Notes under the pieces: model-generated | Told to the model about the DNA's origin: nothing | The model's database searches: none | Seen by the model: only the letters and a program-made list of their open reading frames with translations | Program-made: the position numbers and the translations under genes | Shown: one piece after another, positions 2,850 to 63,124 of the stretch | Position numbering within the stretch: the first letter of the stretch is position 1 | How the letters are laid out: every line of letters starts with the position of its first letter | Source: Alphaproteobacteria bacterium | Lineage (GTDB): Bacteria > Pseudomonadota > Alphaproteobacteria > RF32 > CAG-239 | Assembly (NCBI GenBank): GCA_017528205.1 | Contig: JAFXPE010000032.1 | Location: forward strand, 6,430-70,429 | Direction: 5' to 3' | Length of the DNA stretch: 64,000 nt

Positions 2850-5800
2850 CTATTCAAACAACCACCGAATTCCGGCCGTAAACTCTACGCCGTCCCGGCC
2901 GCCGCTGAGCAAATTGACTTCTCCGTAGCCGGAAAATCTTTCTCCGGCAGTCTTTTGCAAGCCAACTCCGTATTGAACATACGGTTTAACACTCATTTCC
3001 GGCAAATCAACGCGAGCGGCTTCAAATTTTGTGCCGTTCATCACGCTCCACACCACTTTTGCCTCGGCATAAGGTTGCCAACCGTTTTCGGCGGCATAAG
3101 AAAGCGACAGCCCCGGCGCAATGTTAAAAGCGTGCAACGGCCGCGACTTAATGCCGACGCGAGCGGCGTTATGATAATTTGAAGCATCAACCGAGGTATA
3201 ACTCATCAGCAAATTCGGCTGAACAACAAAATTCTCCCGATACGGCCGCCAGTTATAGCCGGTTTTGTCGGCAATACCGTATCTGAACACATAAAAGTGT
3301 TCTTTTCCGTACATGGTCGAAGCGTCTGCACGGTCAACACCGGCATTGACGGTTAAGGCACTGAACAAATCATTTTTGCGCACACGCGCCACCACACCTA
3401 ACGTTCCGCCCTTTTGGTGAATGGTATTGCCGGAATATTTCTGCCGCGAATAGTTATATCCGCCGTACACACCGTATTGCAAATCCCAATTTCCCGCCAA
3501 TTTGGTGCCTTTAGAATCAACGCCGGCATAAAGATTATACATATTGTCTCTGACTTTCGGTCCGTCTTTCAAGCCGACTTTTTCAAACAAAGAAGAAGGT
3601 TTAATCCACACCGTTTTATCCGGCAAAACCATTGTTTGCCCCATATATTCGGCCGCTTGCCGACTTTCGCCCGCATCACGAAAAGCCTCATCATATGAAT
3701 GTAGCTGAATCAAATATCCGCCGGCCAAAGATGCAACCGGAGCAACCGTAACTGCCGGATTGTAACTCGCATATTCCGACTCCGCCCCTCTTTTGAGCAC
3801 AAAACTGCCGCTGTTTTCATCTTCGCCGTAACCGATATCATACTTAAACACCGGTGTGAACGCCGCAAACGTCGGCATTTTAACCTTGCCAAGCAGGTTT
3901 TGGTTATGCGCCGCTTCATCAACAAACGCTATTTCTATTTCCGCATCCGTCAACGCGGTTTCCCCATTCAGCAAATTAATCTCGCCGATGTTCAAACTGC
4001 CGCCGTTTACCGTTATATCCTCGTCGGCAAAAAACACCAAACGGTCGGCCGACAAAGAGCTCAAATCAATATCAATATTCGCCGTCAAACCACCGTTTAA
4101 GTCCATTTTGCTCAAGTTTATATCCGAGGCTTTATCGTTAATCAAATTCAGCGCACCGCCGTTGGCAACAATCCGGTTGCTGCCGTCGGCAGCCAAAAAC
4201 TCATCATCAGCAACTTTTAATTCGCCGCTGTTTATCTCCCAACTCGTATTGCGCACGCCGGCATTCATTTCCGCCACCGCTTTTTGCAAAACAACATCAA
4301 CATTCTCCATTTCGTTGAAAGATACGGACTTGCCCGTAACTTTAAGCAAATTTTCACCGCCTTCGAAGCCGTTTATTGCACCGTCAACCGTAATTTTATG
4401 TTTTTGGGAATTCAGTTCCGCAGTGGCATTTTTCAAATAAAGCGCAACTTCATCTTGCCGCCCGAGCGTAATATCCTTGTCTTGAGCCACAACTTTCAAT
4501 TTTCCGTCACTTATAACTTTAATATCGCTGTCTTTGGCCCCGAAAATGCCTGTTTTAAGCGTTGTCGACTTATTCAAACGACCATCGACTACCATTCCCT
4601 TATAACCGTTAACATCAACATCTTTTCCGCTCACTTCAAAGGATTTTCCGTGAACAACGCCGATATCCTCATTTTCTTTGTCTTCGGTCACAATATAGCT
4701 GGCGGTTGTTTCATCTTGCGCCGCATCCGGTAAAAACTTATTTTCTCCGGCCTGTTTAACCCGCAATAAATTCTTTTTCTCGGCATCTTGCATAACCCGA
4801 TATTTTTTGCCGTCATAATAAACATTGCCGTAAGAAGTGCCCAAATCCAGCACCTTATCGGCACTGCCAAACAGCTCGTATGTGGCGTTATCGTTCAATT
4901 TATCCGCATTTTTCACCGGCAAAATAATCTGAGATATCGCGGCACTGTTGTTTGTTGAGGCCTTTTGCAGATTATATTTATCCCCCAATTCAAACGAAAT
5001 ATACGCATCATTGGCGTTCAACTGGGCAATATCCAAGGTTTCTACGGCATTGTTTATGGTAGAAAACATAGCATCTTGCCCCAAGTTAACGGTGTTATCA
5101 ATTCGCTCTATTTCGGCGGCCAAATGCAAATCGGTTGCAACATTTAATTCGCCGTTGCCGCCGATAATTCCGTTTTGTACGGCAAGATCTGCGCTTTCAA
5201 CTTCAATAATACCCGAATTCTTCAAAGAATACACCGCAATTGATTTTCCGCTGATTCCGGTATTGCCGGCATTGTTCAGCCTTAAAGTGTTATTACCTTC
5301 GGTTTTGCCGTCAATACTGCCGTTAATTATGCCGGAAAAGTCTTGTGCTATGTTAATATCCGTAAAGTATATTTGCGCTTCATCGGTAGCGTCAACCGGC
5401 GACCAACCGGACAATCTTTGGTCATCTCTCTTTTGTACTTTGGCATTGTCTCCGATTTCTGCCGAATTCCAATCCGAAAGTATATCGCCATTGATTTCCG
5501 CCCCTTTCAAGATATTGATTTCCGCCACATGGGCCGTTTCGCCGATATAAATTGCCGCTCCGGAACCGGTGATTGTGCCGGCAAGGTTAAACTTTTTAAC
5601 CAAAGCCTCATCATATTCGTCTTGCGGAATATTATTTCTTTGGGAATCGCTGGAATAATTGGTATACGAGCCGCGAATATCGGACTTATGGCCGAACATA
5701 TTATCGCCGAAATCAAAACCGACAGCTATACCTTTCTCGCCAGTAGCCGTCACCGAAGAGCCGTTTTCAACGTTTATAACGTGATTTTTACCCCAAGTTA

Positions 5801-7169
5801 CGGCAATTCCGAAGTTTTCTTTGCCGTTTGTTTCGATTTTGCTACCGCTCGAAAGCGAGTATTTGTTGTTCACACCGTCTATTCTGACACCGAATGAGCC
5901 TTCGCCGACGGTTGAAATGTTTGAAGTTTGCGTAATTTTGTTATTATCGCCGTAAACATGCAGGCCGACACCCTGAGCAACGGTGCTCGGATTGCCGGTA
6001 TAAGCACGGCCATCCCATTCGGAATAACCGGTATCGAAGTTTTCCGTTAAATTGCTCAAATAATACGACTTACCAAAAAATCGGCGCAAATCAATATCAT
6101 ACCCGATATCTTTCAAAACTGCCAACTCGGCTTCCATCGGCACCAACCAGTTGCGAAAATATTGGTGCGACATAAAGCTGTTGCGCAATTCCAAGTGAGA
6201 TAAGTCAATTTCATCATCATCGGCATTATGTATCGGCATACCCCACACCCGAGGGAGTGTTTCTTCATTTTCGTAACTTACGGAATAATTGGCAAAACCG
6301 CCGTTTTCGATTATGGCAACGCGAGCTTCTTTATAATCGTCTTTTCCGCTCAAAACCTTAACGGTTGTTTCTCCCACATAATAAGGAGAATACGCAAACA
6401 TATCAAAGTCGAGACCTTTGCCGACGGCCATTGCCGCAGTAGGTACAATTTCATAATCCGAATCAAATTCCGTGGGATCGGTTCCGGTATATATTCTCAA
6501 ATCTTTATCGAAAATCCCCAGACTGCCGTCATCTTTTTCCGCAAAATAATATTTTTTATCACCCTCACGACAGGCAGAAGCTTCGGTGCTGATACCTAAG
6601 GAATGCATTATTTCGTGCAGCAAAACGGTGTGCAAATCCGGCAGCGAATAACCGTGGTATAACGAGTGCAGACCGCTATATTCCTGCCAACCCGGATAAT
6701 CTTCATCAACCCCGTGTCCGATGAAGATAAAGCCGTGAACGTCATCAGGAATATCACCCTCGTCGTCATCATCGTCGTCATCGTCCAACGGCTCTTTTTT
6801 GTTAATCATGGCATTGATAGCCGTCACAAGATAAGGAGATTCCTTTATGGCAATACCCGGACTTATGGCCGAAGCGTTATATTCGTTTTCCGTAAATATG
6901 GCATAACCGGCCGGCTCGGAACCTTCCGGAGAAGATAAAACGGTTGCCCATTTTTTGGCCGCGGTATCAAAGGCATTCAAATAAGATTTTTTGATATCAA
7001 ACGCACTTTCATATACTTCGCTGCCCACATCGATTTTCTCTCCCTTTTTATACACCGAAATCTGGTACGAATAATTATCGCCCACAATGGTGTATTTATC
7101 AACGGCAAAAGCCGGAGAAAGATTGAAAAATATCAAACCGAATAAAACTATTATTTTTTTCATGCGCAT
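2850..7169 (-). CDS. type Va autotransporter with an N-terminal zincin (HExxH) protease-like domain
   Basis: 1439 aa.
- Signal peptide MRMKKIIVLFGLIFFNLSPAFA/VD.
- A run of 8 Asp (DNA ~6760-6790) lies ~40 aa before LLHEIMHSLG (DNA 6601-6630).
- The passenger is long, Gly/Asn/Thr/Ile-rich and repetitive (beta-helix-like).
- The last ~280 aa have alternating aromatic/Gly strands ending ..GVEFTAGIRWLFE, as in translocator beta-barrels. Confidence 0.85.
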   Translation of the reverse strand: MRMKKIIVLFGLIFFNLSPAFAVDKYTIVGDNYSYQISVYKKGEKIDVGSEVYESAFDIKKSYLNAFDTAAKKWATVLSSPEGSEPAGYAIFTENEYNASAISPGIAIKESPYLVTAINAMINKKEPLDDDDDDDDEGDIPDDVHGFIFIGHGVDEDYPGWQEYSGLHSLYHGYSLPDLHTVLLHEIMHSLGISTEASACREGDKKYYFAEKDDGSLGIFDKDLRIYTGTDPTEFDSDYEIVPTAAMAVGKGLDFDMFAYSPYYVGETTVKVLSGKDDYKEARVAIIENGGFANYSVSYENEETLPRVWGMPIHNADDDEIDLSHLELRNSFMSHQYFRNWLVPMEAELAVLKDIGYDIDLRRFFGKSYYLSNLTENFDTGYSEWDGRAYTGNPSTVAQGVGLHVYGDNNKITQTSNISTVGEGSFGVRIDGVNNKYSLSSGSKIETNGKENFGIAVTWGKNHVINVENGSSVTATGEKGIAVGFDFGDNMFGHKSDIRGSYTNYSSDSQRNNIPQDEYDEALVKKFNLAGTITGSGAAIYIGETAHVAEINILKGAEINGDILSDWNSAEIGDNAKVQKRDDQRLSGWSPVDATDEAQIYFTDINIAQDFSGIINGSIDGKTEGNNTLRLNNAGNTGISGKSIAVYSLKNSGIIEVESADLAVQNGIIGGNGELNVATDLHLAAEIERIDNTVNLGQDAMFSTINNAVETLDIAQLNANDAYISFELGDKYNLQKASTNNSAAISQIILPVKNADKLNDNATYELFGSADKVLDLGTSYGNVYYDGKKYRVMQDAEKKNLLRVKQAGENKFLPDAAQDETTASYIVTEDKENEDIGVVHGKSFEVSGKDVDVNGYKGMVVDGRLNKSTTLKTGIFGAKDSDIKVISDGKLKVVAQDKDITLGRQDEVALYLKNATAELNSQKHKITVDGAINGFEGGENLLKVTGKSVSFNEMENVDVVLQKAVAEMNAGVRNTSWEINSGELKVADDEFLAADGSNRIVANGGALNLINDKASDINLSKMDLNGGLTANIDIDLSSLSADRLVFFADEDITVNGGSLNIGEINLLNGETALTDAEIEIAFVDEAAHNQNLLGKVKMPTFAAFTPVFKYDIGYGEDENSGSFVLKRGAESEYASYNPAVTVAPVASLAGGYLIQLHSYDEAFRDAGESRQAAEYMGQTMVLPDKTVWIKPSSLFEKVGLKDGPKVRDNMYNLYAGVDSKGTKLAGNWDLQYGVYGGYNYSRQKYSGNTIHQKGGTLGVVARVRKNDLFSALTVNAGVDRADASTMYGKEHFYVFRYGIADKTGYNWRPYRENFVVQPNLLMSYTSVDASNYHNAARVGIKSRPLHAFNIAPGLSLSYAAENGWQPYAEAKVVWSVMNGTKFEAARVDLPEMSVKPYVQYGVGLQKTAGERFSGYGEVNLLSGGRDGVEFTAGIRWLFE

Positions 7170-7262: not shown

Positions 7263-10200
7263 TCAATGTCTCGTAAACGCCGCGGCGGCGTAATTTTGTG
7301 AATTTCTTACTCTGTAACTCTTAATATGCCTCATACTGACACCCAAAACCCGTCCTTTTTTATCGGCCTGAGCCAGCGCCTCCACCTCAGATTGCGGCTT
7401 ATCAACGCGCCTGGCCATAAAATCATGGCCTTGTTTTTCTTTCTTTTCGATTTTTATGGACGACGACACCTTTTTCAAACCTTCGCCCAACGAGGAAATC
7501 CAGCCCTTTCTGGTTATGCGGATTTTATTTAATATCGCTTTGGCGGTAATCGTCATTTTTACTTTTTTATCCACCAAGCCGGAATCTAAAATTGCCGTCA
7601 CTATTTCGCCCATTTCCTTGGAAGTCAGCGCTTTTTCCGGCTGAATTACCTTGCCTTTATCGTCTTTAACCTCTTTTTGATAAGTTATAATATCCGACAA
7701 AGCGGTTAAACCCCGCTGTACCTCGTCAATATACAGGGTATTGAAGTTAAGTTTATCGCCGGCCTTATCAATATCTTTTACTTTGTTAACCATATAATCG
7801 GCAATGCTTTCGCCGTTGCGGGCGGCTCTGGCCATACCGTAAAGCAACTCGCCCAACAGCACCTTATCCTTAAATTTAGGGCTGTTTTGCATTTGCGCAC
7901 CGGTATCAAAAATACCGATAACGAATTTCTTAAATCCGTTTTCCGCTAAGTTTTGCTGCCCTTGATGTCGGTCTGTATCCCATTTACTGCCGGAAAGCAA
8001 GTTGGTAAGTTCCAAAGCAACATACGCCACCGCCATGTCGTGTTTGGTTTGTTCCGACATTTTCGCCGAAGTCATTGCCTGTCCTTCCGCCATGGTCAAA
8101 ATTTTATACACCTGGTCGTCTTTACCCTTGCCGTAACTGATCCATTTTGCCACTTCCGGCTCGTATTCGCCCTGCGGCGTAGTAATTTTAACGTCATCAT
8201 AAATTTTCACCGCTTCCGTAAATTTGGCATAATCCGCTTCAATATCGGTTTCGCTCATGGCCGACAAACGCGCCTGAGTGGCAATATTCAACAACGGTTT
8301 ATACATAACGTCCTGATTTGAGAGGTCAACAATGGTATCATATATCATATCCATACCGGACTGCGCCAAATCCTTGGCATAAGGCCGCATTAAGGCCACA
8401 ACGCAAGGCTTGTCCTCATATTCGATTTTAGTTGTTATAAAAAACGAACCGGCGCCCAAAATTTTATCAACTCGCCCGATTTTAGCCAATTCTTCATTCG
8501 GCAACGTTTCTTTCATCAACTTAAACAAATCGGCACGGTCCGGAATATCCGCCTTATCGCGTAACTGAGCCAACGGCTTTCTGATATCCGGATCCAACAC
8601 CGGCAAATAACTCAGCAATTGCCCAAATTTAACAAAGGCCGGACCTTTGTTTTCAAAAAACATTTTCAACCCTTCGCCAATGGCCTCGCCGCCGGTTTTA
8701 ACGTTTTCCTTATCTCGCTGATTGGCCGATACCAAAGCAGCCAAAATCAGGTTGCGTTCATAAGGTTTTAAGTGGTTGAACACTGTTTTAACCACTCGCT
8801 TGGCCTCTTTGTAATAAGGCGATTTCTCGTCAAAATGCATATCCACCACCAAATTCAGCACATCTTCGTCTTTTGAAGAATAAGCCTTAAGAATTCGGTT
8901 CATCAAATATGCCCTGATTGGCAAATCCGCGTGCCAAAAATTATCGTGCAACAGTTGTAAAGCAGAGTTATCCAACGTAATATTGTGATTGGCAACGCCA
9001 TCAACCTTAATTTCGGCACCGCGCCGCAAATCATAATTTTTCGGCAACTTCTCAAACACTTCGTCAATGCTTTCCGGTGTGCATTTTTTGCTTAAAAAAT
9101 CAATGGTAGTTTTGGCGGCTTCTGACGATTTGGCCAAAGTTGAAATTATGCCCTCGGCGCAACGGGCGGTAATATCGAAATCTTCGGCATCTTTTTGCGA
9201 AAACTTGGCACAACCGATGTCTGCCAACATTTGCGACGTCAATTCCTGCGAAACAATTTCATTGGAAAGCCGTTTCATAATAAATTGCAACGTCACGCGC
9301 GGGAATTTTTCGTGATAGCGAAGCCTGCCATCATAATATCCCTCGGCAACCTGTATCTGTGCGCAAATTTCCTCGGCCGTTTCTTTGGCTTTTTCATAAT
9401 AAGCATCGCTACCATCATCAATTCCCAATTCCGCGGCTTTACCTTTAACATAAAAGTCGATTAAAGCGTCTTTTTCTTTGGCAAACTCAATATCATGCGA
9501 TTTTAACTTATGCTGATGCAACGGCCTTCCGGCATATTGCAAACTCAAAAGTTTTTCGGTTATTTGCATGGCCTCATCGTGATTCGGGTGCTTTTCGATA
9601 TCTTTAACGATAGACTTAAAAAACTCCGATTTATTGATATATTTTTCGGAAAACAAATCCAAATCGTTCATAGTTTCATAAACATACAACTTATCTTGAA
9701 GCGGCAGCGAATGAAATTTATTGTGTTTTTGAATCGCCTCGGCCAAAATATCGGTTATAACCGGCGCATAATATGATGAAGTTTCGCAATCGCGAATATA
9801 TTTAAGCATATTTTTCAAATCAAAATCTTTGCCTTCGCGAATGGCGTTGGCCGCCACCAAAATACCGGCTCCGCGCCAAAAATTCAAAGTTTCATCTTTT
9901 CCGCGCATATCGGATAATTTTTGTTGCATTTCCGGCGTTTCGGCAAACAAAGAAGTTTTCGCGGTGCGGCCGGTCAAATGGTCCAAACGCGCCAAAGTCG
10001 TTTCCATATCCGCATTATAATCAAATCCGTACGCCTCCATGGCATTTTTCAAAATCTCGGAAAACTCTCGATAGCGGAAATTCTCCAAAACCGTCGAATC
10101 AAGCTGAGTGGTCGATGACGAACGATACAGCATCGGAAAGCGCACATATTCCTTTAATTTGCTGGCGCGACGCAACTTTTTTTGCTGAATGACTCTGATG

Positions 10201-20584: not shown

Positions 20585-21820
20585 ATGATTACGGCAACAC
20601 AATACATCGGCAAAACGATTTATGTAAAAATTGACCGTCCGCTCGGCAGCAAACACCCGAAACACGGCTTTGTTTATCCGCTTAATTACGGCTTCGTGCC
20701 AAACACCGTTTCCGGCGACGGCGAAGAATTGGACGCTTATGTTTTGGGCATAAATCAGCCGCTCGCCGACTTTACCGGCAAATGTATCGCCGTAATTCAC
20801 CGCACCGACGATGATGACGACAAATTGATTATTGTTCCGCAAAACAGCGCTTTTACCGACGAAGAAATAGAAAAGCAAACCGCTTTTCAGGAGCAATGGT
20901 TCAAACACATTTTAATCCGTAATCCCAATGTTAGCAAAACTCATTTCGGTATATACGGCATTATCTGCCGCAACAACCAAATTCTGCTCATCAAAAAAGC
21001 TCGCGGTCCGTATACCGGAATGTTTGACCTCCCCGGCGGTTCGCCCGAAAAAGGCGAAAACGAGGAGCAAACTCTGCGTCGTGAAATTGCCGAAGAAACC
21101 GGCTGTTCAGTCGTTAAAAGCGACAATCGGCGTTTTAAATCGGTAATTTTCGGAGATTTTACCCCGCAAAGCGGCGAGCACGGAGTTTTGCAACATAATG
21201 CCGTATTGTTTGATATTGAAATTTCCGGAACACCGTTAACCGATGGCGACGGCAGAGATTCCGGCGGCTGTGTATGGATTGATGCGGCCGATTTAAACGC
21301 CCAAAACGCCACGCCTTACGCCTTAATCGGCGCCGACAAACCGCTGATTGCCGTTTCTGATGCCAACGACAACGCCATCAGCACCCACATTCGTCGCACT
21401 CCGTTGCCGCAAGGCCGCTATATTATGGTGTCGGCAGTTTTAATGTTTAACTCGGCCGGAAATCTGATTATGCAAAAAATTGCCGCTCACAAAAATTGGG
21501 GCGGTTTATGGACTTACTCCGCCGCCGGTCATGTTGATGCCGGCGAAACTTACGAACAAGCGGCCGTCCGCGAACTCAAGGAAGAAATGAACGTTTCGGC
21601 GCAAATGAAAAAAGAATTGCCGCCTGTTCCCGTTTTCAAAGACGGAAAATTATTTTCCCGCCATCACGTTTTTATAACCCGTTCCGATGCTAAAATCACT
21701 CCAGATCCGTTTGAAGTGGCCGAAATAAAAGAAATTTCTTTGCCGGAATTAAAATCCCAAATCAAAGCCAATCCGGATAATTTTTTTCCGCCTTTTGTGG
21801 CCGCAATTAACAATTTATAA
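20585..21820 (+). CDS. three-domain fusion: short inorganic-pyrophosphatase-like domain plus two Nudix hydrolase domains
   Basis: 411 aa.
- N-terminus: YPLNYGFVPNT..SGDGEELDAYVLG resembles family-I PPase motifs.
- First Nudix box: GGSPEKGENEEQTLRREIAEETG.
- Second Nudix box: AAGHVDAGETYEQAAVRELKEEMN. Confidence 0.75.
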   Translation: MITATQYIGKTIYVKIDRPLGSKHPKHGFVYPLNYGFVPNTVSGDGEELDAYVLGINQPLADFTGKCIAVIHRTDDDDDKLIIVPQNSAFTDEEIEKQTAFQEQWFKHILIRNPNVSKTHFGIYGIICRNNQILLIKKARGPYTGMFDLPGGSPEKGENEEQTLRREIAEETGCSVVKSDNRRFKSVIFGDFTPQSGEHGVLQHNAVLFDIEISGTPLTDGDGRDSGGCVWIDAADLNAQNATPYALIGADKPLIAVSDANDNAISTHIRRTPLPQGRYIMVSAVLMFNSAGNLIMQKIAAHKNWGGLWTYSAAGHVDAGETYEQAAVRELKEEMNVSAQMKKELPPVPVFKDGKLFSRHHVFITRSDAKITPDPFEVAEIKEISLPELKSQIKANPDNFFPPFVAAINNL

Positions 21821-47192: not shown

Positions 47193-47279
47193 GCGCTTGT
47201 GGCGGAATCGGTAGACGCTGCAGACTTAAAATCTGTTGGGATTTATCCCGTGCCAGTTCAAGTCTGGCCTAGCGCACCA
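47193..47279 (+). tRNA. tRNA-Leu (anticodon TAA), type II with long variable arm
   Basis: Hand-folded, 87 nt:
- acceptor GCGCTTG/CTAGCGC, with a U6-U67 mismatch
- D arm GCG-GAATCGGTAGA-CGC
- anticodon stem GCAGA/TCTGT, loop CTTAAAA
- variable arm TGGGATTTATCCCGT
- T stem GCCAG/CTGGC, loop TTCAAGT
- discriminator A, then CCA. Confidence 0.9.
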
Positions 47280-53765: not shown

Positions 53766-54145
53766 GTAACGATATTAAAGATTTCAGTCGAATGATCGGC
53801 GAATTAGAGGACGGTCAATTTAATGCTGACTGCTCGCAGCAGTTTGAAAAGGCGTTGCAGTCCGTTAAGGAACGTTGTGAGATTGATGGTGCAAAATCGG
53901 CTACGGCCACAATAGCTGTCAATTTGAAAATCAGTTTTGTGAGTGGTAATATTGAGGTGAACGCCGATGTTTCAAGCAAACTGCCGGCTAAACCGCGCAA
54001 CCGCTCAATCTTCTGGCTTTCAGAGGACGGCAAAGGGATTTGCCGCGAAAATCCTAAACAGCCTCGCCTGCCGTTTGATGTCATCGCCGGCAAGCGTGAA
54101 GTAGTCAACTATGATAACGAAAGGAAAGATATAAATGGAGAATAA
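53762..54145 (+). CDS. hypothetical phage protein
   Basis: GTG 53762 overlaps the upstream stop (GTGA) and follows AGGAGA. 127 aa. Confidence 0.5.
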   Translation: MSNDIKDFSRMIGELEDGQFNADCSQQFEKALQSVKERCEIDGAKSATATIAVNLKISFVSGNIEVNADVSSKLPAKPRNRSIFWLSEDGKGICRENPKQPRLPFDVIAGKREVVNYDNERKDINGE

Positions 54146-55022
54146 TGAAAATACCGTTGTTGCGGTTAGGGATATTGTTGAAAAATATTTTGAGCCGCGT
54201 GTTGTGCAGGTTGAGGGCACAAAAGGCTTGCTTGTTGCACCGGAGGGCATGAGCGTTGCGCACGTCAAACGGTTTATTGATGATGAGCGTCAAGCACCGG
54301 AAGTGTTAAAAGGCAGCACGACGCTACATAATTGCAAGAGCTTTATTGATTTTGTAAATCGCTATAAATATGATACTTCGGCAATTTTCTATGATCAGGA
54401 TAAGCAAAAAATTACTTGCATATTTGATTGCGCAACAAAGGACGTGACAAGTTTTGAACGTCATAAGGCTGATTATGCTTTCCCTTTCAGTGACGAATTG
54501 AAAGAGTGGAAAGAGCATAACGGTGATATTATGACGCAAATTGATTTTGCTTTCTTTATTGAAAAGAATGTTTTGGATTTAGCTGATCCTGATAAGACAG
54601 CCGAAAGTGAGGCCTTAAAAGAGATCCGGCTACGCATTGGCGGCCATTTTGCTGCCGTTAGCAAAATGGTGGAACTCTCCAGAGGCATTTCAATCCATAG
54701 TGATGAACGCGCTACGGTTAAATATGATCCGAATACCGGTGAAAGCACGGTTGATTTTTCAAGTGAGCATACCGACGCCGCCGGTGAAAAGGTAAAAGTG
54801 CCGAATATGTTTTTGATTGTTATACCTATTCTTAAGGGCGGTAAATCGTATCAGTTGCCATGTCGGCTGCGCCACCGCTTAAAGAATGGACAGATTATAT
54901 GGTGGTATGAAGTGATTGATCTTGATAAGGCCATCGCTGCCGCGATTGATGAAGAATTGAACGAGATTAAAGATAAGATCGGCTTGCCGGTATTCTACGG
55001 AGATTTGCCATCAGGCAGATAA
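54135..55022 (+). CDS. DUF2303 (YfdQ-like) phage protein
   Basis: 295 aa. The pattern ..SFIDFVNRYK....AIFYD......C.FD........ERHKADY.F.FS.E.KEW......M.Q..FAFFIE.N..D...P agrees with my memory of the YfdQ family. Confidence 0.55.
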   Translation: MENNENTVVAVRDIVEKYFEPRVVQVEGTKGLLVAPEGMSVAHVKRFIDDERQAPEVLKGSTTLHNCKSFIDFVNRYKYDTSAIFYDQDKQKITCIFDCATKDVTSFERHKADYAFPFSDELKEWKEHNGDIMTQIDFAFFIEKNVLDLADPDKTAESEALKEIRLRIGGHFAAVSKMVELSRGISIHSDERATVKYDPNTGESTVDFSSEHTDAAGEKVKVPNMFLIVIPILKGGKSYQLPCRLRHRLKNGQIIWWYEVIDLDKAIAAAIDEELNEIKDKIGLPVFYGDLPSGR

Positions 55023-55031
55023 TGTGATTAA

Positions 55032-55056
55032 AGGCGGTGGTGAAATACCACCGCCT
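55032..55056 (+). terminator. strong GC hairpin after the DUF2303-like gene (no clear U-tract)
   Basis: AGGCGGTGGT (55032-55041), loop gaaat, ACCACCGCCT (55047-55056). Confidence 0.35.
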
Positions 55057-55116
55057 GCACCGGTATTATTACGATATTACAATATAAGAGCTTAATTTAT
55101 CAAAGGGTTGAAAATA

Positions 55117-55401
55117 ATGGTTGAAGAAACAGAAAAGAAAAAGGGTTGGGTTGTGCCGGTGGCAGCGGTTGAGGCGTTGCGATCGGAGGACGCTGAACTG
55201 TTTAAGGAGGCATTTTTAGCCATGCATGACTATAATATGAACGGTGATGTTGATATGACGGCCATGACGCCTGCAGCGCGTGTGTTGTTTAGTTTGTTTA
55301 AGGAAACGATTGACGGCAATATGCGCCGCTATGAGGCTATAAAAAAACGCAATCAGGAAACAGCCAAGAGCCGAAAACCGCGCAAGAAAAGAGGAGAATA
55401 A
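55117..55401 (+). CDS. small DUF6291-like protein (domain seen at N-termini of phage replication organisers)
   Basis: 94 aa from ATG 55117. ...LFKEAFLAMHDYNMNGDVD...TPAARVLFSLFKETIDGNMRRYEAIKKRN....K.RKP resembles the DUF6291 pattern (..Y...G.......F...K..ID.N..RYE). This rests on recollection only. Confidence 0.4.
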   Translation: MVEETEKKKGWVVPVAAVEALRSEDAELFKEAFLAMHDYNMNGDVDMTAMTPAARVLFSLFKETIDGNMRRYEAIKKRNQETAKSRKPRKKRGE

Positions 55402-55748
55402 AAATTTTTACCAAAAGTTACCAGTGGTAAAAAAACACGCAAAATTTTACCAAAAGTTACCAGTGGTGACGAAAAACGAATAAAGGCAGCCAAAACCGGC
55501 CGCAAACGCAGTAAAATGATTTTTAGTTAAAAATTTGGTAGCGGTTGGTGAGGTTTGGTGAAAAAAAAGAAAAGAAAAAGAAGCAAAAAGAAAATAAATA
55601 AAAAATTATTTTGGTTGTTGGTTAAAAGGTAGTCGGTTTAAGGGTTAAAGGTTTAAGTTATGGGTTACAGGGAAAAGGTTAAGAGGGTTACAGGGAGAAA
55701 GGAAAAGGTTGCAAAACTTGTGGATAGATCCACACGTTTTGTGGATAA
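55401..55748. repeat. non-coding repeat region: 27/28-bp direct repeat x2, polypurine tract, GGTTA-type iterons and three DnaA-box-like sites (candidate phage origin)
   Basis: - AAAATTTT(T)ACCAAAAGTTACCAGTGGT at 55401-55428 and 55441-55467.
- A purine run at 55561-55607.
- GGGTTACAGGGA at 55662-55673 and 55685-55696.
- TGTGGATAG at 55719-55727, AGATCCACA at 55726-55734 and TGTGGATAA at 55740-55748. Confidence 0.55.
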
Positions 55749-55987
55749 ATGCTTGTCACATAAACGCGCCTTTGCGGACAAGCCTGCCGGCTTACCCTCG
55801 CAAAGACTGCGTTATACAAGCATTTTGGAGATGATTGCAGGCAAAGCTGCAATCATTAGTGCGCAAGTTAAAACTTGCTTATTGCGCCTATCGGCGCAGG
55901 CTCGGCAAGGAAAAGGAGCGCGTTTTTGGCTTTGTGCAGCAATTTCTGTCTATTTTTTGGTTGCAAGTGTTGTATGGGAGGTTAAGA

Positions 55988-56377
55988 ATGTTATCAAAAA
56001 TCAGAACGATTGAAGATGTTAAGTTTGAATTGACGCGGTATTTTGAAACATTGCGCGCCTTACCGGCACCGGAACGGCCGGATTATGCCAAGAATTACCT
56101 CTGGCAACTGCTGCCAAGTGAGCCGAATGACGATGACAAAGAGGCAGCCGGCAAAAGATTTCAGCCGACAACGGTGGATATAGCAGATTGTTGGTATATG
56201 GACGCCAATTTTATACCGCTGCTGACTAAGTTTGAATATAAATTGCTTAGCCGCCGGCTGCGTGATAAGCCGCTGCCGTGGAAAGTGATTGAACATGAAA
56301 CAAATTACTCACGGCAATGGCTTAAATTCTACATGGATAAAGCCTTGCAACGCCTTTTTGTCCACATGAAAAGTTAA
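55988..56377 (+). CDS. putative late-gene regulator (in the position of lambda Q / RinA-ArpU-type activators)
   Basis: GGGAGG lies 6 nt before ATG 55988. 129 aa. The C-terminal LLSRRLRDKPLPWKVIEHETNYSRQWLKFYMDKALQRL looks like a sigma-region-4-type HTH. It is the last gene before the terminase leader. Confidence 0.45.
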   Translation: MLSKIRTIEDVKFELTRYFETLRALPAPERPDYAKNYLWQLLPSEPNDDDKEAAGKRFQPTTVDIADCWYMDANFIPLLTKFEYKLLSRRLRDKPLPWKVIEHETNYSRQWLKFYMDKALQRLFVHMKS

Positions 56378-56454
56378 TTTTTAGACACAAAATGAGTTAT
56401 TAAGAGATACAAAAAGATTAAATAATATGATAAATCAAGCACTTATAATGATAA

Positions 56455-56530
56455 TTTACATCACTTTACAAACACTTTACATCAATTTACAAAAAATGAC
56501 TTTACATAATCACGTTAATCAAAGTATAAA
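56455..56530 (+). promoter_or_regulatory. five phased TTTACA repeats, the last forming a candidate late promoter
   Basis: TTTACA occurs at 56455, 56465, 56476, 56486 and 56501 (spacings 10, 11, 10, 15). The last copy, an 18-nt spacer and TATAAA (56525-56530) form a sigma70-like promoter. Confidence 0.45.
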
Positions 56531-56566
56531 AATTGTAGGATAGGGTTTTTAGACTTTATCCGGTAG

Positions 56567-56596
56567 AGGCCACTCATTTGAGCGGCCTTTTTGTTT
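56567..56596 (+). terminator. intrinsic terminator ~35-60 nt downstream of the candidate late promoter
   Basis: AGGCCACTC / GAGCGGCCT stem (one mismatch) followed by TTTTTGTTT. Confidence 0.55.
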
Positions 56597-56641
56597 GGTG
56601 TAACACTGAACAATAACCCTGCGACGGGTTAAGCTCCAAAG

Positions 56642-56675
56642 GCCACGCGCTATTCAACCGGCGCGTGGCTTTCTT
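56642..56675 (+). terminator. second GC-rich hairpin terminator immediately before terS
   Basis: GCCACGCGC (56642-56650) / GCGCGTGGC (56661-56669), then TTTCTTG. It ends 2 nt before the terS ATG. Confidence 0.5.
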
Positions 56676-56677
56676 GT

Positions 56678-57205
56678 ATGGTGAATGAAATGACAAAGGA
56701 AAAGAAAACAACAAAGGCAAAAAAGTCGGTTGGCCGGCCGAAAGTGAAATGGAAGAGCAAGGCAAACGCTGACAGGATTTTTGCGGCCATGCAAGACGGC
56801 AAGAGCTTGCGACAGATCTGCAGAGAGAACGGTTGGCCACACAGCACGGTGCTTGCTTGGTTGAATGGTGAGTTTTCTGACCAATACACGCAAGCGCAGG
56901 AGCGGCGCGCGGATTATTACTTTGAGGAAATACTTGAGATCGCTGACAGTTGTCCGGCTGATAAGGAGGAAGTGGCTGCAGCCAAGTTAAGAATTGATAC
57001 GCGCAAGTGGATCATAGGCAGAATGAATCCCAAAAAATACAGTGACAGGGTTAATGTTGACATGAGCGGTGAAACAAAGGTGACGCATGACGGAACAGTT
57101 GAATTTACCCCGACAGATATGGCAATATCGCGACTTGATGAAATCGTTAGCAGAGCTATCGGGGAAAGAAAAGATACAGGCTTGGAGGACACTGGCGAAA
57201 AATGA
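56678..57205 (+). CDS. terS: terminase small subunit
   Basis: 175 aa. N-terminal HTH (GRPKVKW.....DRIFAAMQDGKSLRQICRENGWPHSTVLAWL) and the conserved ...RIDTRKWIIGRMNPKKYSDR pattern of small terminases. It lies directly upstream of terL. Confidence 0.72.
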   Translation: MVNEMTKEKKTTKAKKSVGRPKVKWKSKANADRIFAAMQDGKSLRQICRENGWPHSTVLAWLNGEFSDQYTQAQERRADYYFEEILEIADSCPADKEEVAAAKLRIDTRKWIIGRMNPKKYSDRVNVDMSGETKVTHDGTVEFTPTDMAISRLDEIVSRAIGERKDTGLEDTGEK

Positions 57206-58580
57206 TTTGTTTTTTCTTCTGGTGTATGTGCTCGGCGTTAGCTTTGCGAATAATCAATGGGCGCTTGACCGGTGCAGAGAATACCAAGAAGATCCTTACG
57301 GCTTTTTGGATTTGTGGGCACGCGGCCACTTTAAGAGCACAATTATTACATACGCGCACACGATATTTGAAATATTGAACAATCCGGAGGTTACGATCGG
57401 AATTTTCAGCCATAAACTGCCGATCGCAAAATCCTTTGTGATCCAGATTAAAAACACGTTGGAGAGCAATGAACTGCTAAAGCTCTTGTTTCCTGACATA
57501 CTTTATGCCAAGCCGGCAAGGGAAAGTCCAAAGTGGACAGAGGATAAAATTTGCGTGAAAAGACAATCATCACGCAAAGAGATGACGGTTGAGGCCTGCG
57601 GTGTTGTTGAGGGGCAGCCGACAGGAATGCACTTTGATATTTTGGTGTATGATGACTTGGTGACTTTGGAGAGTGTGAACACGCCGGAGCAGATCCTCAA
57701 GACAACGGCGGCGTATAAAATGAGCCTTAACTTGGGCAGCGCAACAGCAAAGCGCGCCATGATCGGCACATTTTATGCGTTTAATGATACATATAACGTG
57801 ATTATTGATGAGGGCGGCGTTATCCCTCGGATATATCCGGCAATGACAGATCCGAAGGATTTTAACACTTCTGTCTTTTTACCGCCGGAAGAGTTAAAAC
57901 AAAAACGTATTGAAATGGGCGCAGCAACATTTGGCACACAGATGTTACTGGATCCGTCTATTGCAAACAACAGATATTTTCTGCCGGAATGGGTAAAATA
58001 CTATGACGGCAATGGCCATGAAACAATGATTAAATACATCATTGTGGATCCGGCCTCAAGCAAGGAGAAACGCAGCGACTACACTGTCATGCTTGTCTTG
58101 GGTTTAGGCAAGGACGGCAACTATTATGTTGTTGACGGTGTGCGCGATCGGCTTAATTTGTCTGAACGAACAAACATGTTATTCAGGCTTGTTGAGCAAT
58201 ACCGGCCAAAAGCGGTGTGGTATGAAAGTTATGGGCAGCAGGCTGATAATGAGCATATTCAATCTGAAATGAATGTGCGACATTTTCGGTTTGCGATCAA
58301 TCGGCTTGGCGGCACAATGGCTAAAAAAGCAAGGATTGAACGTTTGCAGCCTTTATTTGAGCAAGGCAAAATCTGGTTTCCGACAAGGCTGCCGTTTTTA
58401 ACGGTGGACAACGGCTATCAGGATTTTACCAAGCTCTTTTTGGACGACGAATATTTGAAATATCCGGCCTGCAATCACGACGATATGATTGACTGCTTGG
58501 CTCGGTTGTTTGATATAAACGCTATCTTTCCACAAAGCGGCGCAGCTTATCAAACAATTTTCTATAACAAGAAAGGGTAA
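57087..58580 (+). CDS. terL: terminase large subunit
   Basis: 497 aa. Walker-A-like ARGHFKST, Walker B FDILVYDD, and C-terminal RNaseH-like nuclease motifs (IIVDPASS, ..SYGQQA.., NHDDMIDCLA). It overlaps terS by 119 nt in another frame. An alternative ATG lies at 57138. Confidence 0.85.
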   Translation: MTEQLNLPRQIWQYRDLMKSLAELSGKEKIQAWRTLAKNDLFFLLVYVLGVSFANNQWALDRCREYQEDPYGFLDLWARGHFKSTIITYAHTIFEILNNPEVTIGIFSHKLPIAKSFVIQIKNTLESNELLKLLFPDILYAKPARESPKWTEDKICVKRQSSRKEMTVEACGVVEGQPTGMHFDILVYDDLVTLESVNTPEQILKTTAAYKMSLNLGSATAKRAMIGTFYAFNDTYNVIIDEGGVIPRIYPAMTDPKDFNTSVFLPPEELKQKRIEMGAATFGTQMLLDPSIANNRYFLPEWVKYYDGNGHETMIKYIIVDPASSKEKRSDYTVMLVLGLGKDGNYYVVDGVRDRLNLSERTNMLFRLVEQYRPKAVWYESYGQQADNEHIQSEMNVRHFRFAINRLGGTMAKKARIERLQPLFEQGKIWFPTRLPFLTVDNGYQDFTKLFLDDEYLKYPACNHDDMIDCLARLFDINAIFPQSGAAYQTIFYNKKG

Positions 58581-58584
58581 AACT

Positions 58585-58977
58585 ATGGGATTAGGTAAAA
58601 GTTTGAAAAAAGCCTTTAAGAAAGCAACAAAAGCCGTTACAAAAACGGTTAAGAGTGTTGTAACAAGCGGCACGGACGCAATCAAAGCAGTTAGCAAAGG
58701 TGATTTAACCGGTTTAGCTGACGCTGCAGTGCGCATGTCATCGGCCGGCACAATATCGCTAAAAGATAAAGGTTTGCTAAATGCAGGCTTAGGAGTGGAG
58801 CAGCAAGTTGAGGCACCACCGACACAAACAGAGCAGCCGTATGACGGTTTGCTTGCTTATGTGACAGATCAACGCAATCGCAGAGCAAAGCGCAATCGCC
58901 AAAGCACAAACAACACTAACGGAAACACAAAAGTTGACGGCAATAGATTGTCCGGCACAACTGCTTTAGGAGTGTAA
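58585..58977 (+). CDS. hypothetical small structural-module protein (paralog 1)
   Basis: 130 aa. Lys-rich amphipathic N-terminus. The C-terminus is ..DQRNRRAKRNRQ....GTTALGV. Confidence 0.55.
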   Translation: MGLGKSLKKAFKKATKAVTKTVKSVVTSGTDAIKAVSKGDLTGLADAAVRMSSAGTISLKDKGLLNAGLGVEQQVEAPPTQTEQPYDGLLAYVTDQRNRRAKRNRQSTNNTNGNTKVDGNRLSGTTALGV

Positions 58978-58981
58978 TGAT

Positions 58982-59299
58982 ATGTCTTTCAGTAGAGTAT
59001 TTAGGAAACTGCGCAAATACGTTATTAAAAAAGCTAAAGCCACAGCTCAAGCTGCTGAACAAGCGAAAGCGGCAGAGCAAGCAAAAGCTGCCGAAACTGC
59101 CGCAGCAACGCAGGCGGTGGCCACGCAGCCACCGGTGCAAACAACGGCAATACCGGTGCAAACTACCGGCACGCCGGTTGATCAGGATAATGACAGCCTT
59201 GATCTTTATATCAATACAATGCGCAATCGGCGTAAAAGAGGAGCGCAGCTGCCAGATGTGGCTGCGTTATTAGGACAAACAGCCACATTGGGGGTTTAA
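58982..59299 (+). CDS. hypothetical small structural-module protein (paralog 2)
   Basis: 105 aa. Lys-rich N-terminus, an AEQAKAAEQAKAAE repeat, and the C-terminus ..TMRNRRKRGAQ....GQTATLGV. Confidence 0.55.
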   Translation: MSFSRVFRKLRKYVIKKAKATAQAAEQAKAAEQAKAAETAAATQAVATQPPVQTTAIPVQTTGTPVDQDNDSLDLYINTMRNRRKRGAQLPDVAALLGQTATLGV

Positions 59300-59300
59300 T

Positions 59301-61025
59301 ATGGATAACACGGAAAACGATTTGGCCAAAAGAATTGTCAAGGAGCTTGGCGAACTTGAAAGCAAGCGTAAGCCTCTTGAGAATGTTTGGCAGAGTATTA
59401 TGGAAATGGTGGATCCGGCAAACGCTTTCATCAATCGCGAATACTCGGCAGAAAATATGTTTAAGGAAGATCTTTATTCAACTTCTGCCCTGCGCGCGAT
59501 ACCGAAGTTTGTGGCTGCTTTGCAATCTACCGTTACGCCGCCGAATGAACAGTGGCACCGTTTAATACCGCCGACACGCAAGCTCAAAAAAGATCAAACA
59601 TGTATTTCTTGGCTTGAAGAATTGGCAGAGGATTTATTTGAACGCAGATACCGGCCGGCTGCAGGTTTTAATAAGGCTATTATCAAAATTTGGTATAGTA
59701 TGGCTAAAATCGGCGTCGGTTGTATGTTTATTGATGAGGCAAGCGACGGCACTGGTGCAGAATATACCTGCGTCAACATGAAAGATTTTTATGTTAGCTT
59801 GTATGATAATGGCCAGATTAAGAAGTGTTATCGCAAACTCAAGAAAAGCTTTTGGGAGCTTTGTGAGGATTTAGAGGATAAAGGTGTTAATCCGCAAGAG
59901 GTGATACCGGTTGAAATATATAATCGTTGCAAATTATCTCCGAACTCGGAGCTTAATCTTATTCATGCGGTGAAAAAGTTAAGCAATAAAGAAGTGAGTG
60001 CTTTTGCGATTGATATACCAAAGGTTGACGGCGGCGTTGAAAAAATAAAACGCCGCTATGCGCATTATTTGGTGTTAGCTGACGGTGGCCGGCCGGTAGT
60101 TTTACACTCCGGCTTTTTCTTTACTTGTCCGTATATGTTTGCGCGTTTCAAAGAGCTTGATTATGATATTTATTCAAACTCTCCGTCAATGCAGGGTTTG
60201 CCAGATATACAAATGCTGCAGCGTATGCGTAAATCTATGATTGAGGCCGGTGAAAAAGCGGTTGATCCGACAATCTTGGCTAAGCAAGACGCAGCAATGG
60301 GCGGTATTGAACCGGTGGCCGGTGCGATTATTCCGGGAGGTTTGGACGATCAAGGCAAGGAAACAATGAAAGCCTTGCAGGTTACCGGATCAGCTGCGCT
60401 CGGTGTTGACTTGGAAGAGCTGATCACTAAAGGAATTGAGGATTTTTACCTTGTGCCTTTGTATATGATGTATTATCAAGAGGGTAAGATGACGGCAACA
60501 GAGATCAATCAGCGCGCAATGGAAAGAGCAATGTTAATGTCTATCAATGTCTTTCCGGTTGAAAATGAGCTGCTTTCTCCTATGGTGGCCAGAGAACTTG
60601 ATATTATGGAACGCCTTGAAGTTTTACCGCCGAATATGCCGAAAGATTTGGCTGCTTTGATGAATAAAGATGTGCCGTATTATGCGATCCAGTATGAGGG
60701 TGAGCAGCATAAGGCGCAGGAAATTATCAAGGCTAACGGTATTATGGTGACTTTAGAGGGCGCAGCCTCGCTTAGCCAGTATGAGCCGACGATTGGTTTA
60801 GCTATTAAAGGCTATGACTGTTTATCTACACTCGGCAGAGCAAACGGTATGCCTATGGATCATCTACTTACGCAAAAGGAATATAAGAAAGTCACAGATG
60901 ATTTAAAGACACAGCAGGCGGCTCAACAACAAGCCGCTGCTGCAGCGATAGATCCGCGCGCCGCTGAAACAGCCGGAAATACAGCTGACCGTTATCAGCA
61001 ACAACTTGCAAGCATGAGGTATTGA
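59301..61025 (+). CDS. portal (head-to-tail connector) protein
   Basis: 574 aa. The size and the position after terL, together with the N-terminal pattern (R...L..LE..R.P.E..W..I...V.P), are reminiscent of podovirus-type connector proteins. Confidence 0.72.
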   Translation: MDNTENDLAKRIVKELGELESKRKPLENVWQSIMEMVDPANAFINREYSAENMFKEDLYSTSALRAIPKFVAALQSTVTPPNEQWHRLIPPTRKLKKDQTCISWLEELAEDLFERRYRPAAGFNKAIIKIWYSMAKIGVGCMFIDEASDGTGAEYTCVNMKDFYVSLYDNGQIKKCYRKLKKSFWELCEDLEDKGVNPQEVIPVEIYNRCKLSPNSELNLIHAVKKLSNKEVSAFAIDIPKVDGGVEKIKRRYAHYLVLADGGRPVVLHSGFFFTCPYMFARFKELDYDIYSNSPSMQGLPDIQMLQRMRKSMIEAGEKAVDPTILAKQDAAMGGIEPVAGAIIPGGLDDQGKETMKALQVTGSAALGVDLEELITKGIEDFYLVPLYMMYYQEGKMTATEINQRAMERAMLMSINVFPVENELLSPMVARELDIMERLEVLPPNMPKDLAALMNKDVPYYAIQYEGEQHKAQEIIKANGIMVTLEGAASLSQYEPTIGLAIKGYDCLSTLGRANGMPMDHLLTQKEYKKVTDDLKTQQAAQQQAAAAAIDPRAAETAGNTADRYQQQLASMRY

Positions 61026-61026
61026 T

Positions 61027-61317
61027 ATGGCTTTGACTAAGGAAGAAAAAGAAAAAATCCGCCTGAATGTTAGGCTTATTAAAGAGGCTTATGAAAAGGC
61101 CTTTAAAGGTAATCAGGTGATTATACAGGATTTGCGCAGCTTTTGCGATGTTAATGTGCCGACGGACATGAATCCGGCAATGGGTAATATTGACGTGAGC
61201 AAAGTTTTGGTAAAAACCGGCCGCGCAAGTGTGTTTCAGCGGATAGAATATTGGCTGAACACGCCGGTTGAACAAATTGAAACAGACACTTTGAATAAAT
61301 GGGAGCATAAAGCATGA
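61027..61317 (+). CDS. hypothetical head-module protein
   Basis: 96 aa, tightly coupled to portal (1-nt gap) and to the next gene (4-nt overlap). Confidence 0.5.
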   Translation: MALTKEEKEKIRLNVRLIKEAYEKAFKGNQVIIQDLRSFCDVNVPTDMNPAMGNIDVSKVLVKTGRASVFQRIEYWLNTPVEQIETDTLNKWEHKA

Positions 61318-62000: not shown

Positions 62001-62065
62001 CGGAATGTATAAAGCTTTGTTTTAACCGGAGGCGTTTGCCTCCTTTTTTAATAGGAAAATGATAA

Positions 62066-63052: not shown

Positions 63053-63057
63053 GGATA

Positions 63058-63091: not shown

Positions 63092-63124
63092 AATAATTTT
63101 CAATAATTTGTAAAGGATAAAAAC

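Follow-up and report, generated by a model that had tools for sequence, protein, structure and literature searches.

The window considered here is a 64,000-nt stretch of an Alphaproteobacteria bacterium genome (GCA_017528205.1, contig JAFXPE010000032.1; the term always refers to the whole stretch). On its minus strand it carries a giant gene whose predicted product, a soluble protein in the mass class of about 190 kDa, is best placed in a new, widespread and divergent UbiB-superfamily branch that is marked by a protease-solenoid-kinase-like architecture. An M48 metallopeptidase domain forms the N-terminus, a domain related to UbiB/ABC1/COQ8 lies towards the C-terminus and, judging from the conserved residues, both active sites are apparently intact, with the solenoid between them. 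Its open reading frame (ORF) and parts are as follows:

7263-12275 (-): whole ORF, uninterrupted, 1670 codons plus stop
12258-12260 (-): probable true start, Met6 (ATG), giving a 1665-aa product
11706-12218 (-): M48 zinc metallopeptidase domain, residues ~20-190, from Pfam, PDB profile and fold
11955-11969 (-): HExxH motif, HECGH, with H103/E104/H107; zinc-binding and catalytic motif
11907-11909 (-): E123 in ERASD, predicted third zinc ligand, aligned with E162 (ENQAD) of 3c37
9756-11678 (-): all-alpha solenoid or linker, residues ~200-840, from the AlphaFold2 model
8736-9758 (-): helical pre-kinase region, residues ~840-1180; conserved, travels with the kinase-like domain
7836-8738 (-): UbiB/ABC1-like atypical kinase-like domain, residues ~1180-1480, from hhalign, Foldseek and BLASTP
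7476-7838 (-): residues 1480-1600, no known fold match; most conserved segment of the close family
7266-7478 (-): basic, poorly conserved tail, residues 1600-1670; net charge +10 over the last 70 aa

The relationship to UbiB was barely visible to searches with curated models. Pfam gave no match to PF03109 in the window protein at E up to 1, and the UbiB model TIGR01982 matched weakly (E 2e-6, 26.6 bits vs a cut-off of 487.55); a distant relative, P0085, passes PF03109 (28.0 vs a cut-off of 22.9). PDB sequences, searched with the single sequence or with a whole-protein profile, yielded the M48 domain only. As these searches were blind to UbiB, the link required a fold search and profile-profile comparison. 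To this end, a profile of eight diverse family members was compared with 12 true UbiB proteins by hhalign, which aligned them over 270 columns (99.4%, E 4e-21). The eight-member profile also matched PF03109 proteins in a database of 5.8 billion sequences (E 3e-11 to 1e-5), and a BLASTP comparison with an undoubted PF03109 member (196.8 bits to that model) aligned 304 residues at E 2e-8. An AlphaFold2 model of residues 840-1670 had a predicted local distance difference test (pLDDT) score of 77.6 and a predicted template modelling score (pTM) of 0.74. In a Foldseek search with this model the top 11 PDB matches all belonged to the UbiB family; COQ8A (5i35, 4ped) was found at E 3.8e-7 to 6e-7 and the next-best matches were MSMEG_1954 and Rv3197 (5yjz, 7cyr, 7cz2; E 9e-6 to 1e-3), while ordinary protein kinases appeared in the list only at E ~1e-2. 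By these sequence, profile and fold comparisons, residues ~1180-1480 are homologous to UbiB/ABC1/COQ8. A preliminary description of this DNA, made from its letters, had placed a UbiB/ABC1-like domain at ~1200-1460, which the hhalign and COQ8A matches bear out; of the two Pfam families it had proposed to look for, PF01435 was found (45.9 bits) and PF03109 was not. The protein should not be filed as UbiB, because the curated cut-offs are not reached, the beta3 Lys is absent, and both a membrane anchor and a quinone context are lacking. A match to PF19778 (RE_endonuc; residues 1355-1419, within the kinase-like domain) was dismissed as noise, since its 20.5 bits fall below the cut-off of 23.4, and weak Pfam matches to Hit1_C and SATase_N were likewise taken as noise.

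The active site of the UbiB-like domain can be traced motif by motif:

8619-8630 (-): KxGQ motif, KFGQ, residues 1216-1219; aligns with KLGQ of true UbiB
8445-8459 (-): LGAGS, nucleotide loop; UbiB has its Ala-rich loop AAAS here
8382-8402 (-): beta3 strand VVALMRP, residues 1292-1298, with A1294 at the invariant-Lys position
8244-8255 (-): alphaC motif SETD, with E1342/D1344 corresponding to UbiB ExD; aligned with UbiB ELDY
7950-7979 (-): catalytic loop DTDRHQGQQN, residues 1433-1442, corresponding to HxDxHxGN in the BLASTP and hhalign alignments
7899-7910 (-): DFG-equivalent FDTG, residues 1456-1459, with D1457 as the predicted metal-binding Asp

Conservation was counted over up to 174 aligned relatives, with denominators that vary by position, and at 25-30% identity between members. 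K1216 was kept in 166/166 and Q1219 in 165/166 relatives, and alphaC E1342 in 168/169. In the catalytic loop, D1433, the catalytic D1435 and H1437 were each present in 171/171, and G1439 was kept; D1433 takes the place of the first His of HxDxHxGN, and the loop Asn position, 1440, held Gln in 153 relatives and Asn in 17, with a single exception to Gln/Asn. D1457 was conserved in 169/170 and G1459 in 165 relatives. The nucleotide loop followed the family pattern G-[AS]-[GA]-S, G1274 being present in 164 of the aligned relatives and S1277 in 161; the Ser of the AAAS-equivalent loop is retained and its Ala is partly replaced by Gly. On the beta3 strand R1297 was conserved in 149 relatives, and position 1294 was occupied by Ala (50), Ser (44), Arg (18), Lys (18), Gln (12) or Gly (10).

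The suspicion that the invariant Lys might be missing was therefore correct, as the alignments place A1294 there. The conclusion drawn from it in the preliminary description, that the domain is a pseudokinase, did not hold up against the near-invariance of K1216, Q1219, E1342, D1435, H1437, Gln/Asn1440 and D1457 in the 174 relatives. Its assignment of DTDRHQGQQN and FDTG as stand-ins for the catalytic loop and DFG proved right, with the loop Asn position falling on Q1440 and not on N1442. Formally, a pseudokinase lacks at least one of the VAIK Lys, the HRD Asp and the DFG Asp; the window domain falls under this definition through the Lys alone, and the definition makes no statement on activity. 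That the remaining active site is frozen at such low overall identity argues against a dead pseudokinase and favors an enzyme that is active but altered in the way it handles nucleotides. R1247 (DNA 8535-8537; consensus PxRW) is a candidate stand-in for the lost beta3 Lys, because neither the 30 close relatives nor an alignment of eight diverse members shows any other residue there, and true UbiB proteins have no counterpart of it; K1216 is a further candidate.

Compared with UbiB/COQ8A (4ped, 5i35), the window domain thus has the fold, KxGQ, the alphaC ExD Glu, the catalytic Asp and His and the DFG Asp in common. It differs in the missing beta3 Lys, the exchange of the loop Asn for Gln and of AAAS for GAGS, the missing membrane anchor, and its place at the C-terminal end of a ~190-kDa chain behind a protease and a solenoid, as well as in falling short of the PF03109 and TIGR01982 cut-offs. 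Relatives of the window protein occur in a lineage without respiratory quinones, unlike the setting of UbiB/COQ8A. Rv3197 and MSMEG_1954 are soluble-domain bacterial UbiB folds for which structures with nucleotides exist; each is ~400 aa long, with one domain and no protease, and in the structural alignment they share 13-16% identity with the window domain.

At the other end of the protein, PF01435 (Peptidase_M48) matched residues 36-109 with 45.9 bits, well above the gathering cut-off of 20.3. A profile of 30 relatives matched PDB entry 3c37 at E 1.2e-9 with both the HExxH and the downstream Glu aligned, and a Foldseek search with the AlphaFold2 model returned BepA (6sar, E 8e-5) and 3c37 (E 3e-4, TMt 0.54). 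H103, E104, H107 and E123 were each conserved in 130 of the 132 M48-bearing relatives, D127 in 124/132 and the distal His, H167, in 111/113. Every M48 hallmark that we looked for was present, namely a score above the PF01435 cut-off, HExxH with its Glu and the gluzincin fold. On this evidence residues ~20-190 are a bona fide M48 peptidase domain, as an M48/Ste24-like core had been recognised there from the start, and its predicted zinc site is intact family-wide. The HExxH...E zincin core and the fold are common to Geobacter Q74D82 (3c37) and Escherichia coli BepA (6sar, 6ait), and BepA likewise couples its M48 head to a helical-repeat (tetratricopeptide) domain. The window protein differs from both in that it lacks a signal peptide and carries a ~650-residue helical region and a kinase-like domain; the distance from HExxH to the Glu is 16 residues, compared with ~50 in 3c37. 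Characterised M48 enzymes (HtpX, Oma1, BepA, Ste24, PGM48) target membrane-associated or misassembled proteins.

The ORF is real. An assembly chimera, which the preliminary description had named as one finding that would overturn its reading, is ruled out because the 1665-aa protein is identical on seven contigs, the four displayed ones coming from four different samples, and because the full-length architecture is retained in ~30 species-level relatives. The gene neighbours agree across the displayed contigs wherever their flanks overlap. The single uninterrupted ORF of 5,013 nt was found as described, as were all the quoted motifs. Met6 is probably the start codon, since the database copy (P0001) has 1665 aa and the N-terminus MTGRILSDND of the closest full-length ortholog, L002 (~77% identity), aligns at Met6 with MSGRILDDNN of the window protein. 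Against L002 the nonsynonymous divergence (dN) was 0.154 for the whole protein, with saturated synonymous sites (proportion of synonymous differences, pS, ~0.79), which indicates a translated protein under strong purifying selection over its whole length. By region, dN was 0.047 for residues 1480-1600, 0.065 for residues 1180-1480, ~0.22 for the middle and 0.32 for the C-terminal tail; the kinase-like domain is, by this comparison, among the slowest-evolving parts. No transmembrane segment or signal peptide was found in the window protein, in agreement with the first description (maximum Kyte-Doolittle 19-residue mean 0.85), and the protein is acidic overall (isoelectric point 5.8).

The two active sites are separated by helices. 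In an AlphaFold2 model of residues 1-859 (mean pLDDT 85.6), residues ~200-840 were almost wholly helical and formed a continuous array. The soluble, helical middle that had been proposed from the sequence is thereby upheld by model and hydropathy, and the Foldseek comparison proposed along with it gave weak, non-significant matches to karyopherin/HEAT-type folds (E >= 4e-3). We read the solenoid, from the model, as a possible scaffold or substrate-binding array. It is the fastest-evolving structured part of the protein (dN 0.22 vs L002), and a hidden Markov model (HMM) of this region matched 60 of 176 sampled relatives. The pre-kinase region, also helical in the AlphaFold2 model, is far more widely kept: its HMM matched 148/176, including P0156, a relative with SidE-PDE and ankyrin modules. 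Behind the kinase-like domain, residues 1480-1600 are 92.6% identical to L002 and contain the invariant residues Y1515, Q1520, L1526, L1550 and S1565. In the tail that follows, the last 15 residues have pLDDT < 50. The last 40 aa carry a family mean charge of +2.8 compared with a background of -0.8 +/- 2.7, and the basic tail is a candidate signal for secretion without an N-terminal signal peptide.

An exhaustive search with residues 1100-1670 recovered no fewer than 561 clusters (50% identity) at E <= 1e-3, 421 of them at <= 1e-10. Most clusters have lengths of 1,400-2,600 aa with the kinase-like domain near the C-terminus. An M48 head is present in 132/176 sampled members, so that the architecture, for which the preliminary description had named no characterised precedent, is standard in a large uncharacterised family. 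Its members are labelled 'M48 family metalloprotease' or 'hypothetical protein' in databases, and those named in look-ups of clusters stem from metagenome-assembled genomes (MAGs) of Alphaproteobacteria; in the literature we found no description of an M48-UbiB fusion or of a UbiB-like effector. Other N-terminal modules occur as well. P0156 (2671 aa) lacks M48 and has a SidE_PDE domain (93.9 bits) and ankyrin repeats ahead of the same pre-kinase/kinase-like module, and was assembled identically from three SRA runs (L075-L077); P0135 carries an additional EF-hand.

Most of the 561 clusters come without taxonomy, and the following statements rest on the named members. In a scan of GTDB, all full-length relatives belonged to uncultured Alphaproteobacteria of animal and human guts, several of them Candidatus Enterousia MAGs, which confirms the link to host-associated alphaproteobacteria that the preliminary description had asked about. 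A subfamily of ~1900 aa occurs in other alphaproteobacterial MAGs and in one Micavibrio MAG. Enterousia belongs to the order Rs-D84, whose genomes lack the tricarboxylic acid cycle, respiratory chains and several glycolytic steps; its genomes are mostly <1 Mb and it is predicted to be obligately partner-dependent (PMC12306168). Micavibrio is a genus of epibiotic predators (PMC3189940). Since the Enterousia-order relatives have no respiratory chain, a ubiquinone role is unlikely for them, and a role in coenzyme Q (CoQ) biosynthesis is unlikely altogether. One MAG may contain two paralogs, which are 35-48% identical over the C-terminal half only and diverge fast in their N-terminal and middle regions. 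In one Ca. Enterousia MAG (L012, 7806-17064) two family copies stand in tandem, the first split into ORFs of 655 aa and 898 aa and the second intact (1539 aa); the split may reflect a frameshift, a decayed gene (pseudogene) or faulty assembly. A tblastn search of plasmids with the C-terminal 831 aa gave no match. In a related gut MAG, a 195-aa ankyrin-repeat protein (L079 4425-5012 (-)) is encoded 5 kb from the family member P0010, a possible sign of association with eukaryotic cells.

How might such a protein work? COQ8/UbiB proteins are ATPases rather than protein kinases and are activated by cardiolipin membranes and by phenols or phenolic lipid head groups; proteins are kept out of their active site by steric hindrance, and the Gln of KxGQ positions the attacking water (bioRxiv 10.1101/149823). 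By analogy, the UbiB-like module of the window protein would be a lipid- or small-molecule-triggered ATPase or a small-molecule kinase, neither dead nor a protein kinase, the latter because it retains the KxGQ lid that occludes the protein-substrate cleft in COQ8. It would couple engagement of a membrane or lipid to M48 proteolysis on the same scaffold. The protein would be exported without a Sec signal and act on the membrane or the proteins of a partner, host or prey cell. The leading candidate for the export route is a type IV secretion system (T4SS), because relatives have VirB4 and the C-terminus is basic; in Micavibrio-like members it would be a type I secretion system (T1SS). A role in ubiquinone synthesis would be excluded if the window's genome shares the lack of a respiratory chain of Rs-D84.

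We tentatively favor this view of a partner-directed effector enzyme, in which a lipid- or small-molecule-triggered module is joined to an M48 protease, and give it a little less than an even chance. It is supported by the carriers, with named members in gut alphaproteobacterial MAGs and in a MAG of a predator genus, and by the paralogs within one MAG, the tandem copies in L012, the non-syntenic position in the window's clade, and the SidE_PDE/ankyrin and EF-hand modules in P0156 and P0135. The positively charged C-termini and a virB4 gene near the family gene in relatives point in the same direction. The distance between virB4 (PF03135) and the family gene is 0.8-6 kb in 12-13 related genomes (the virB4 block was seen in L010, L012, L013, L016, L017, L018, L020, L022, L023, L024, L026 and L032, and in L078 and L080). 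These VirB4 proteins are ~74-100% identical between genomes whose giant proteins share just 35-55%, so by sequence the related genomes possess a conserved chromosomal VirB4. VirD4 and other T4SS components were not seen alongside it, and the T4SS genes of the relatives are apparently scattered rather than gathered in one operon.

Several observations weigh against an exported effector. No secretion signal or secretion-associated domain was found in the window protein; tblastn detected no virB4 in the 64-kb window, and none of its annotated ORFs is a secretion gene. The C-termini of the virB4-linked clade are just weakly basic (0 to +3), and Micavibrio aeruginosavorus has neither a type III secretion system nor a T4SS (PMC3189940). 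In the shorter relatives the family gene lies between an orf115-virB4-orf203 block (12 loci) and a DUF374-lpxK-lpxC block (14-16 loci), with varying side and orientation. Because the latter block is an equally conserved neighbor, the proximity of virB4 may simply be inherited gene order, and we downgraded it as evidence for a functional link. On the catalytic side, predicted ATP binding would have to take place without the beta3 Lys, and the window protein itself falls short of PF03109. Finally, the gene is solitary amid housekeeping genes, and a wide family shows very little change in architecture or catalytic residues; both features fit a housekeeping enzyme.

The strongest alternative is an ATP-coupled protease that stays inside the cell and serves membrane-protein or lipid homeostasis in its own cytoplasm or at the inner membrane face, by analogy with HtpX/Oma1/BepA quality control and UbiB-type lipid handling. 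We regard it as less probable than the effector while taking it seriously. Across the 561 or more clusters (50% identity) the architecture is stable, and so are both active sites; selection is strongly purifying, the window protein has no signal peptide, transmembrane segment or known secretion domain, and at 14-16 loci of relatives the solitary gene has lpxK and lpxC, both lipid A genes, beside it. In addition, ABC1K kinases and an M48 protease, as separate chains, share plastoglobule and cyanoglobule lipid droplets (PMC12223511). Against this stands the distribution: named members are confined to alphaproteobacterial MAGs and the Micavibrio MAG instead of spreading over broad taxa, and lineage-specific 5-kb genes in one or two copies per <1-Mb genome would be unusual for such a function. 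The fast divergence of the N-terminal and middle regions of paralogs, and the fusion of the module to SidE-PDE plus ankyrin or to an EF-hand in relatives, likewise fit a housekeeping role poorly.

A second alternative keeps the protease and takes the UbiB-like domain as a dead pseudokinase scaffold that serves as its binding or regulatory module. It could draw on A1294 in place of the invariant Lys and on the free choice of residue at this position (A, S, R, K, Q or G), on the exchange of the loop Asn for Gln, and on the missing PF03109 match. Dead domains, however, usually lose their catalytic residues. Here at least 165 aligned relatives retain each of K1216, Q1219, E1342, D1435, H1437 and D1457, position 1440 is Gln or Asn in all but one, and the domain belongs to the slowest-evolving parts (dN 0.065), which makes this explanation rather improbable.

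Very improbable, in our view, is a self-processing toxin or polyprotein from which the M48 domain frees the kinase-like module, or a polymorphic toxin against bacteria that leaves the cell through a T1SS or a type VI secretion system. The great size with a protease at one end, the alternative N-terminal modules of the family, the acidic protein with possible signal-like information at its C-terminus and the T1SS of Micavibrio-type predators (PMC3189940) would suit it. Yet Pfam shows no RTX, Rhs, PAAR or any other domain beyond M48, no conserved adjacent small ORF that might be an immunity gene was found in the contexts examined, and PADLOC gave no match. Nothing supports self-processing; no conserved linker or cleavage motif was found, and the solenoid was modelled as one continuous structure. 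The chance of a canonical ubiquinone UbiB fused to a protease, or of a chimeric mis-assembly, is next to negligible: the TIGR01982 match that would speak for the former (E 2e-6) reaches 26.6 of 487.55 bits, with no transmembrane anchor and a related order without respiratory chains, and an artefact is contradicted by the identical protein on seven contigs and an architecture found in ~30 species.

The gene has no operon partners in the window, where it is solitary amid housekeeping genes and directly flanked by two genes of no known family. The features around it are:

12353-14284 (-): upstream neighbor, 626-643 aa, with HESGH at 13520-13534
2850-7169 (-): downstream neighbor, 1437-1439 aa, with a clear N-terminal signal peptide (MRMKKIIVLFGLIFFNLSPAFA) and HEIMHSLG, motif at 6603-6617
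12286-12314 (-): promoter-like TTGACT-17-TACAAT with an extended -10 TG, directly 5' of the start

Neither neighbor matched Pfam, PDB or PADLOC, and the search of PADLOC for anti-phage defence was equally negative for the gene between them. The downstream neighbor follows the M48 gene in all three contigs that reach far enough and is absent from L001-L032; its C-terminus (…GIRWLFE) faintly resembles an autotransporter barrel. All three adjacent same-strand genes thus encode an HExxH, and by a rough estimate the chance of this for both neighbors is ~6e-4. None of 11 flanking window proteins matched in 32 related loci; the window clade therefore offers no operon logic and the position of the gene is non-syntenic. 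The promoter-like site has 10/12 matches, a score that other sites in the region equal and none exceeds, and is the sole top-scoring site with TG. Since 13 such sites were found where shuffling predicts 14.5, the number is not above chance, and the evidence for a real promoter is weak. Elsewhere in the window we noted two tRNA-Val genes (gac, cac; 15394-15552 (+)), 10 nt apart in an AT-rich gap upstream of the gene cluster, and an unusual 411-aa fusion of an inorganic pyrophosphatase and a NUDIX domain (20585-21820 (+)). Downstream of a tRNA-Leu(taa) gene (47193-47279) there is a prophage-like block (~54100-63100 (+)) with small and large terminase (56678-58580), portal/head-tail connector (59301-61025) and major head (62066-63052) genes.

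With which other known systems may the window protein be compared? Legionella SidE-family proteins and SidJ resemble it in size, in the lack of a Sec signal and in having several enzyme modules per chain; there is no sequence homology between them and the window protein, and it is P0156, not the window protein, that has a true SidE_PDE domain and ankyrin repeats ahead of the same kinase-like module. A survey of Legionella kinase-like proteins mentions ABC1/UbiB only as a non-effector kinase (PMC9758233). A second comparison concerns the plastoglobules and cyanoglobules already mentioned, where ABC1K proteins and the M48 protease PGM48/sll1280 sit side by side on a lipid surface (PMC12223511; PMC8956952). 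These are the same two families as in the window fusion; they are separate polypeptides of photosynthetic organisms tied to prenylquinone metabolism, and the likeness to the window domains is one at the family level. By this analogy the window protein could be a Rosetta-stone version of the ABC1K-PGM48 pairing, in which case the plant and cyanobacterial pair would be the unfused version of the same partnership. A broader idea builds on the conservation of the covalent fusion in hundreds of lineages, among them relatives placed in an order without quinones: M48 proteases at membrane or lipid-droplet surfaces would generally have lipid-triggered UbiB ATPases as partners, and in these partner-dependent or predatory bacteria the machine would have been turned outward as a T4SS-delivered weapon against membranes of host or prey. 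The family would then lend itself as a soluble, quinone-independent model for UbiB/COQ8 activity. This broader idea appears unlikely to us.

The effector reading is plausible but unproven, and its support is circumstantial. The family matters beyond it. UbiB/COQ8/ABC1 proteins are ancient, linked to human disease and membrane-tethered, and the tethering complicates their biochemistry. Their biochemical activity and direct role have been described as largely unclear (bioRxiv 10.1101/149823). The family described here is a naturally soluble, protease-coupled branch of the UbiB superfamily that has lost the beta3 Lys and conserved the other catalytic residues. As members occur in an order without a respiratory chain, the core chemistry of the fold appears to be separable from CoQ biosynthesis, with the M48 protease suggested as its partner. 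For the bacteria themselves, genes of ~5 kb kept in one or two copies in Ca. Enterousia MAGs, whose genus genomes are reported to be <1 Mb, are for that reason prime candidates for partner exploitation. Our literature search met no mechanism for partner exploitation by Rs-D84/Enterousia-like gut bacteria or Micavibrio-like predators, and the family supplies candidate molecules for it. It may also help to explain what UbiB-type enzymes do outside quinone synthesis.

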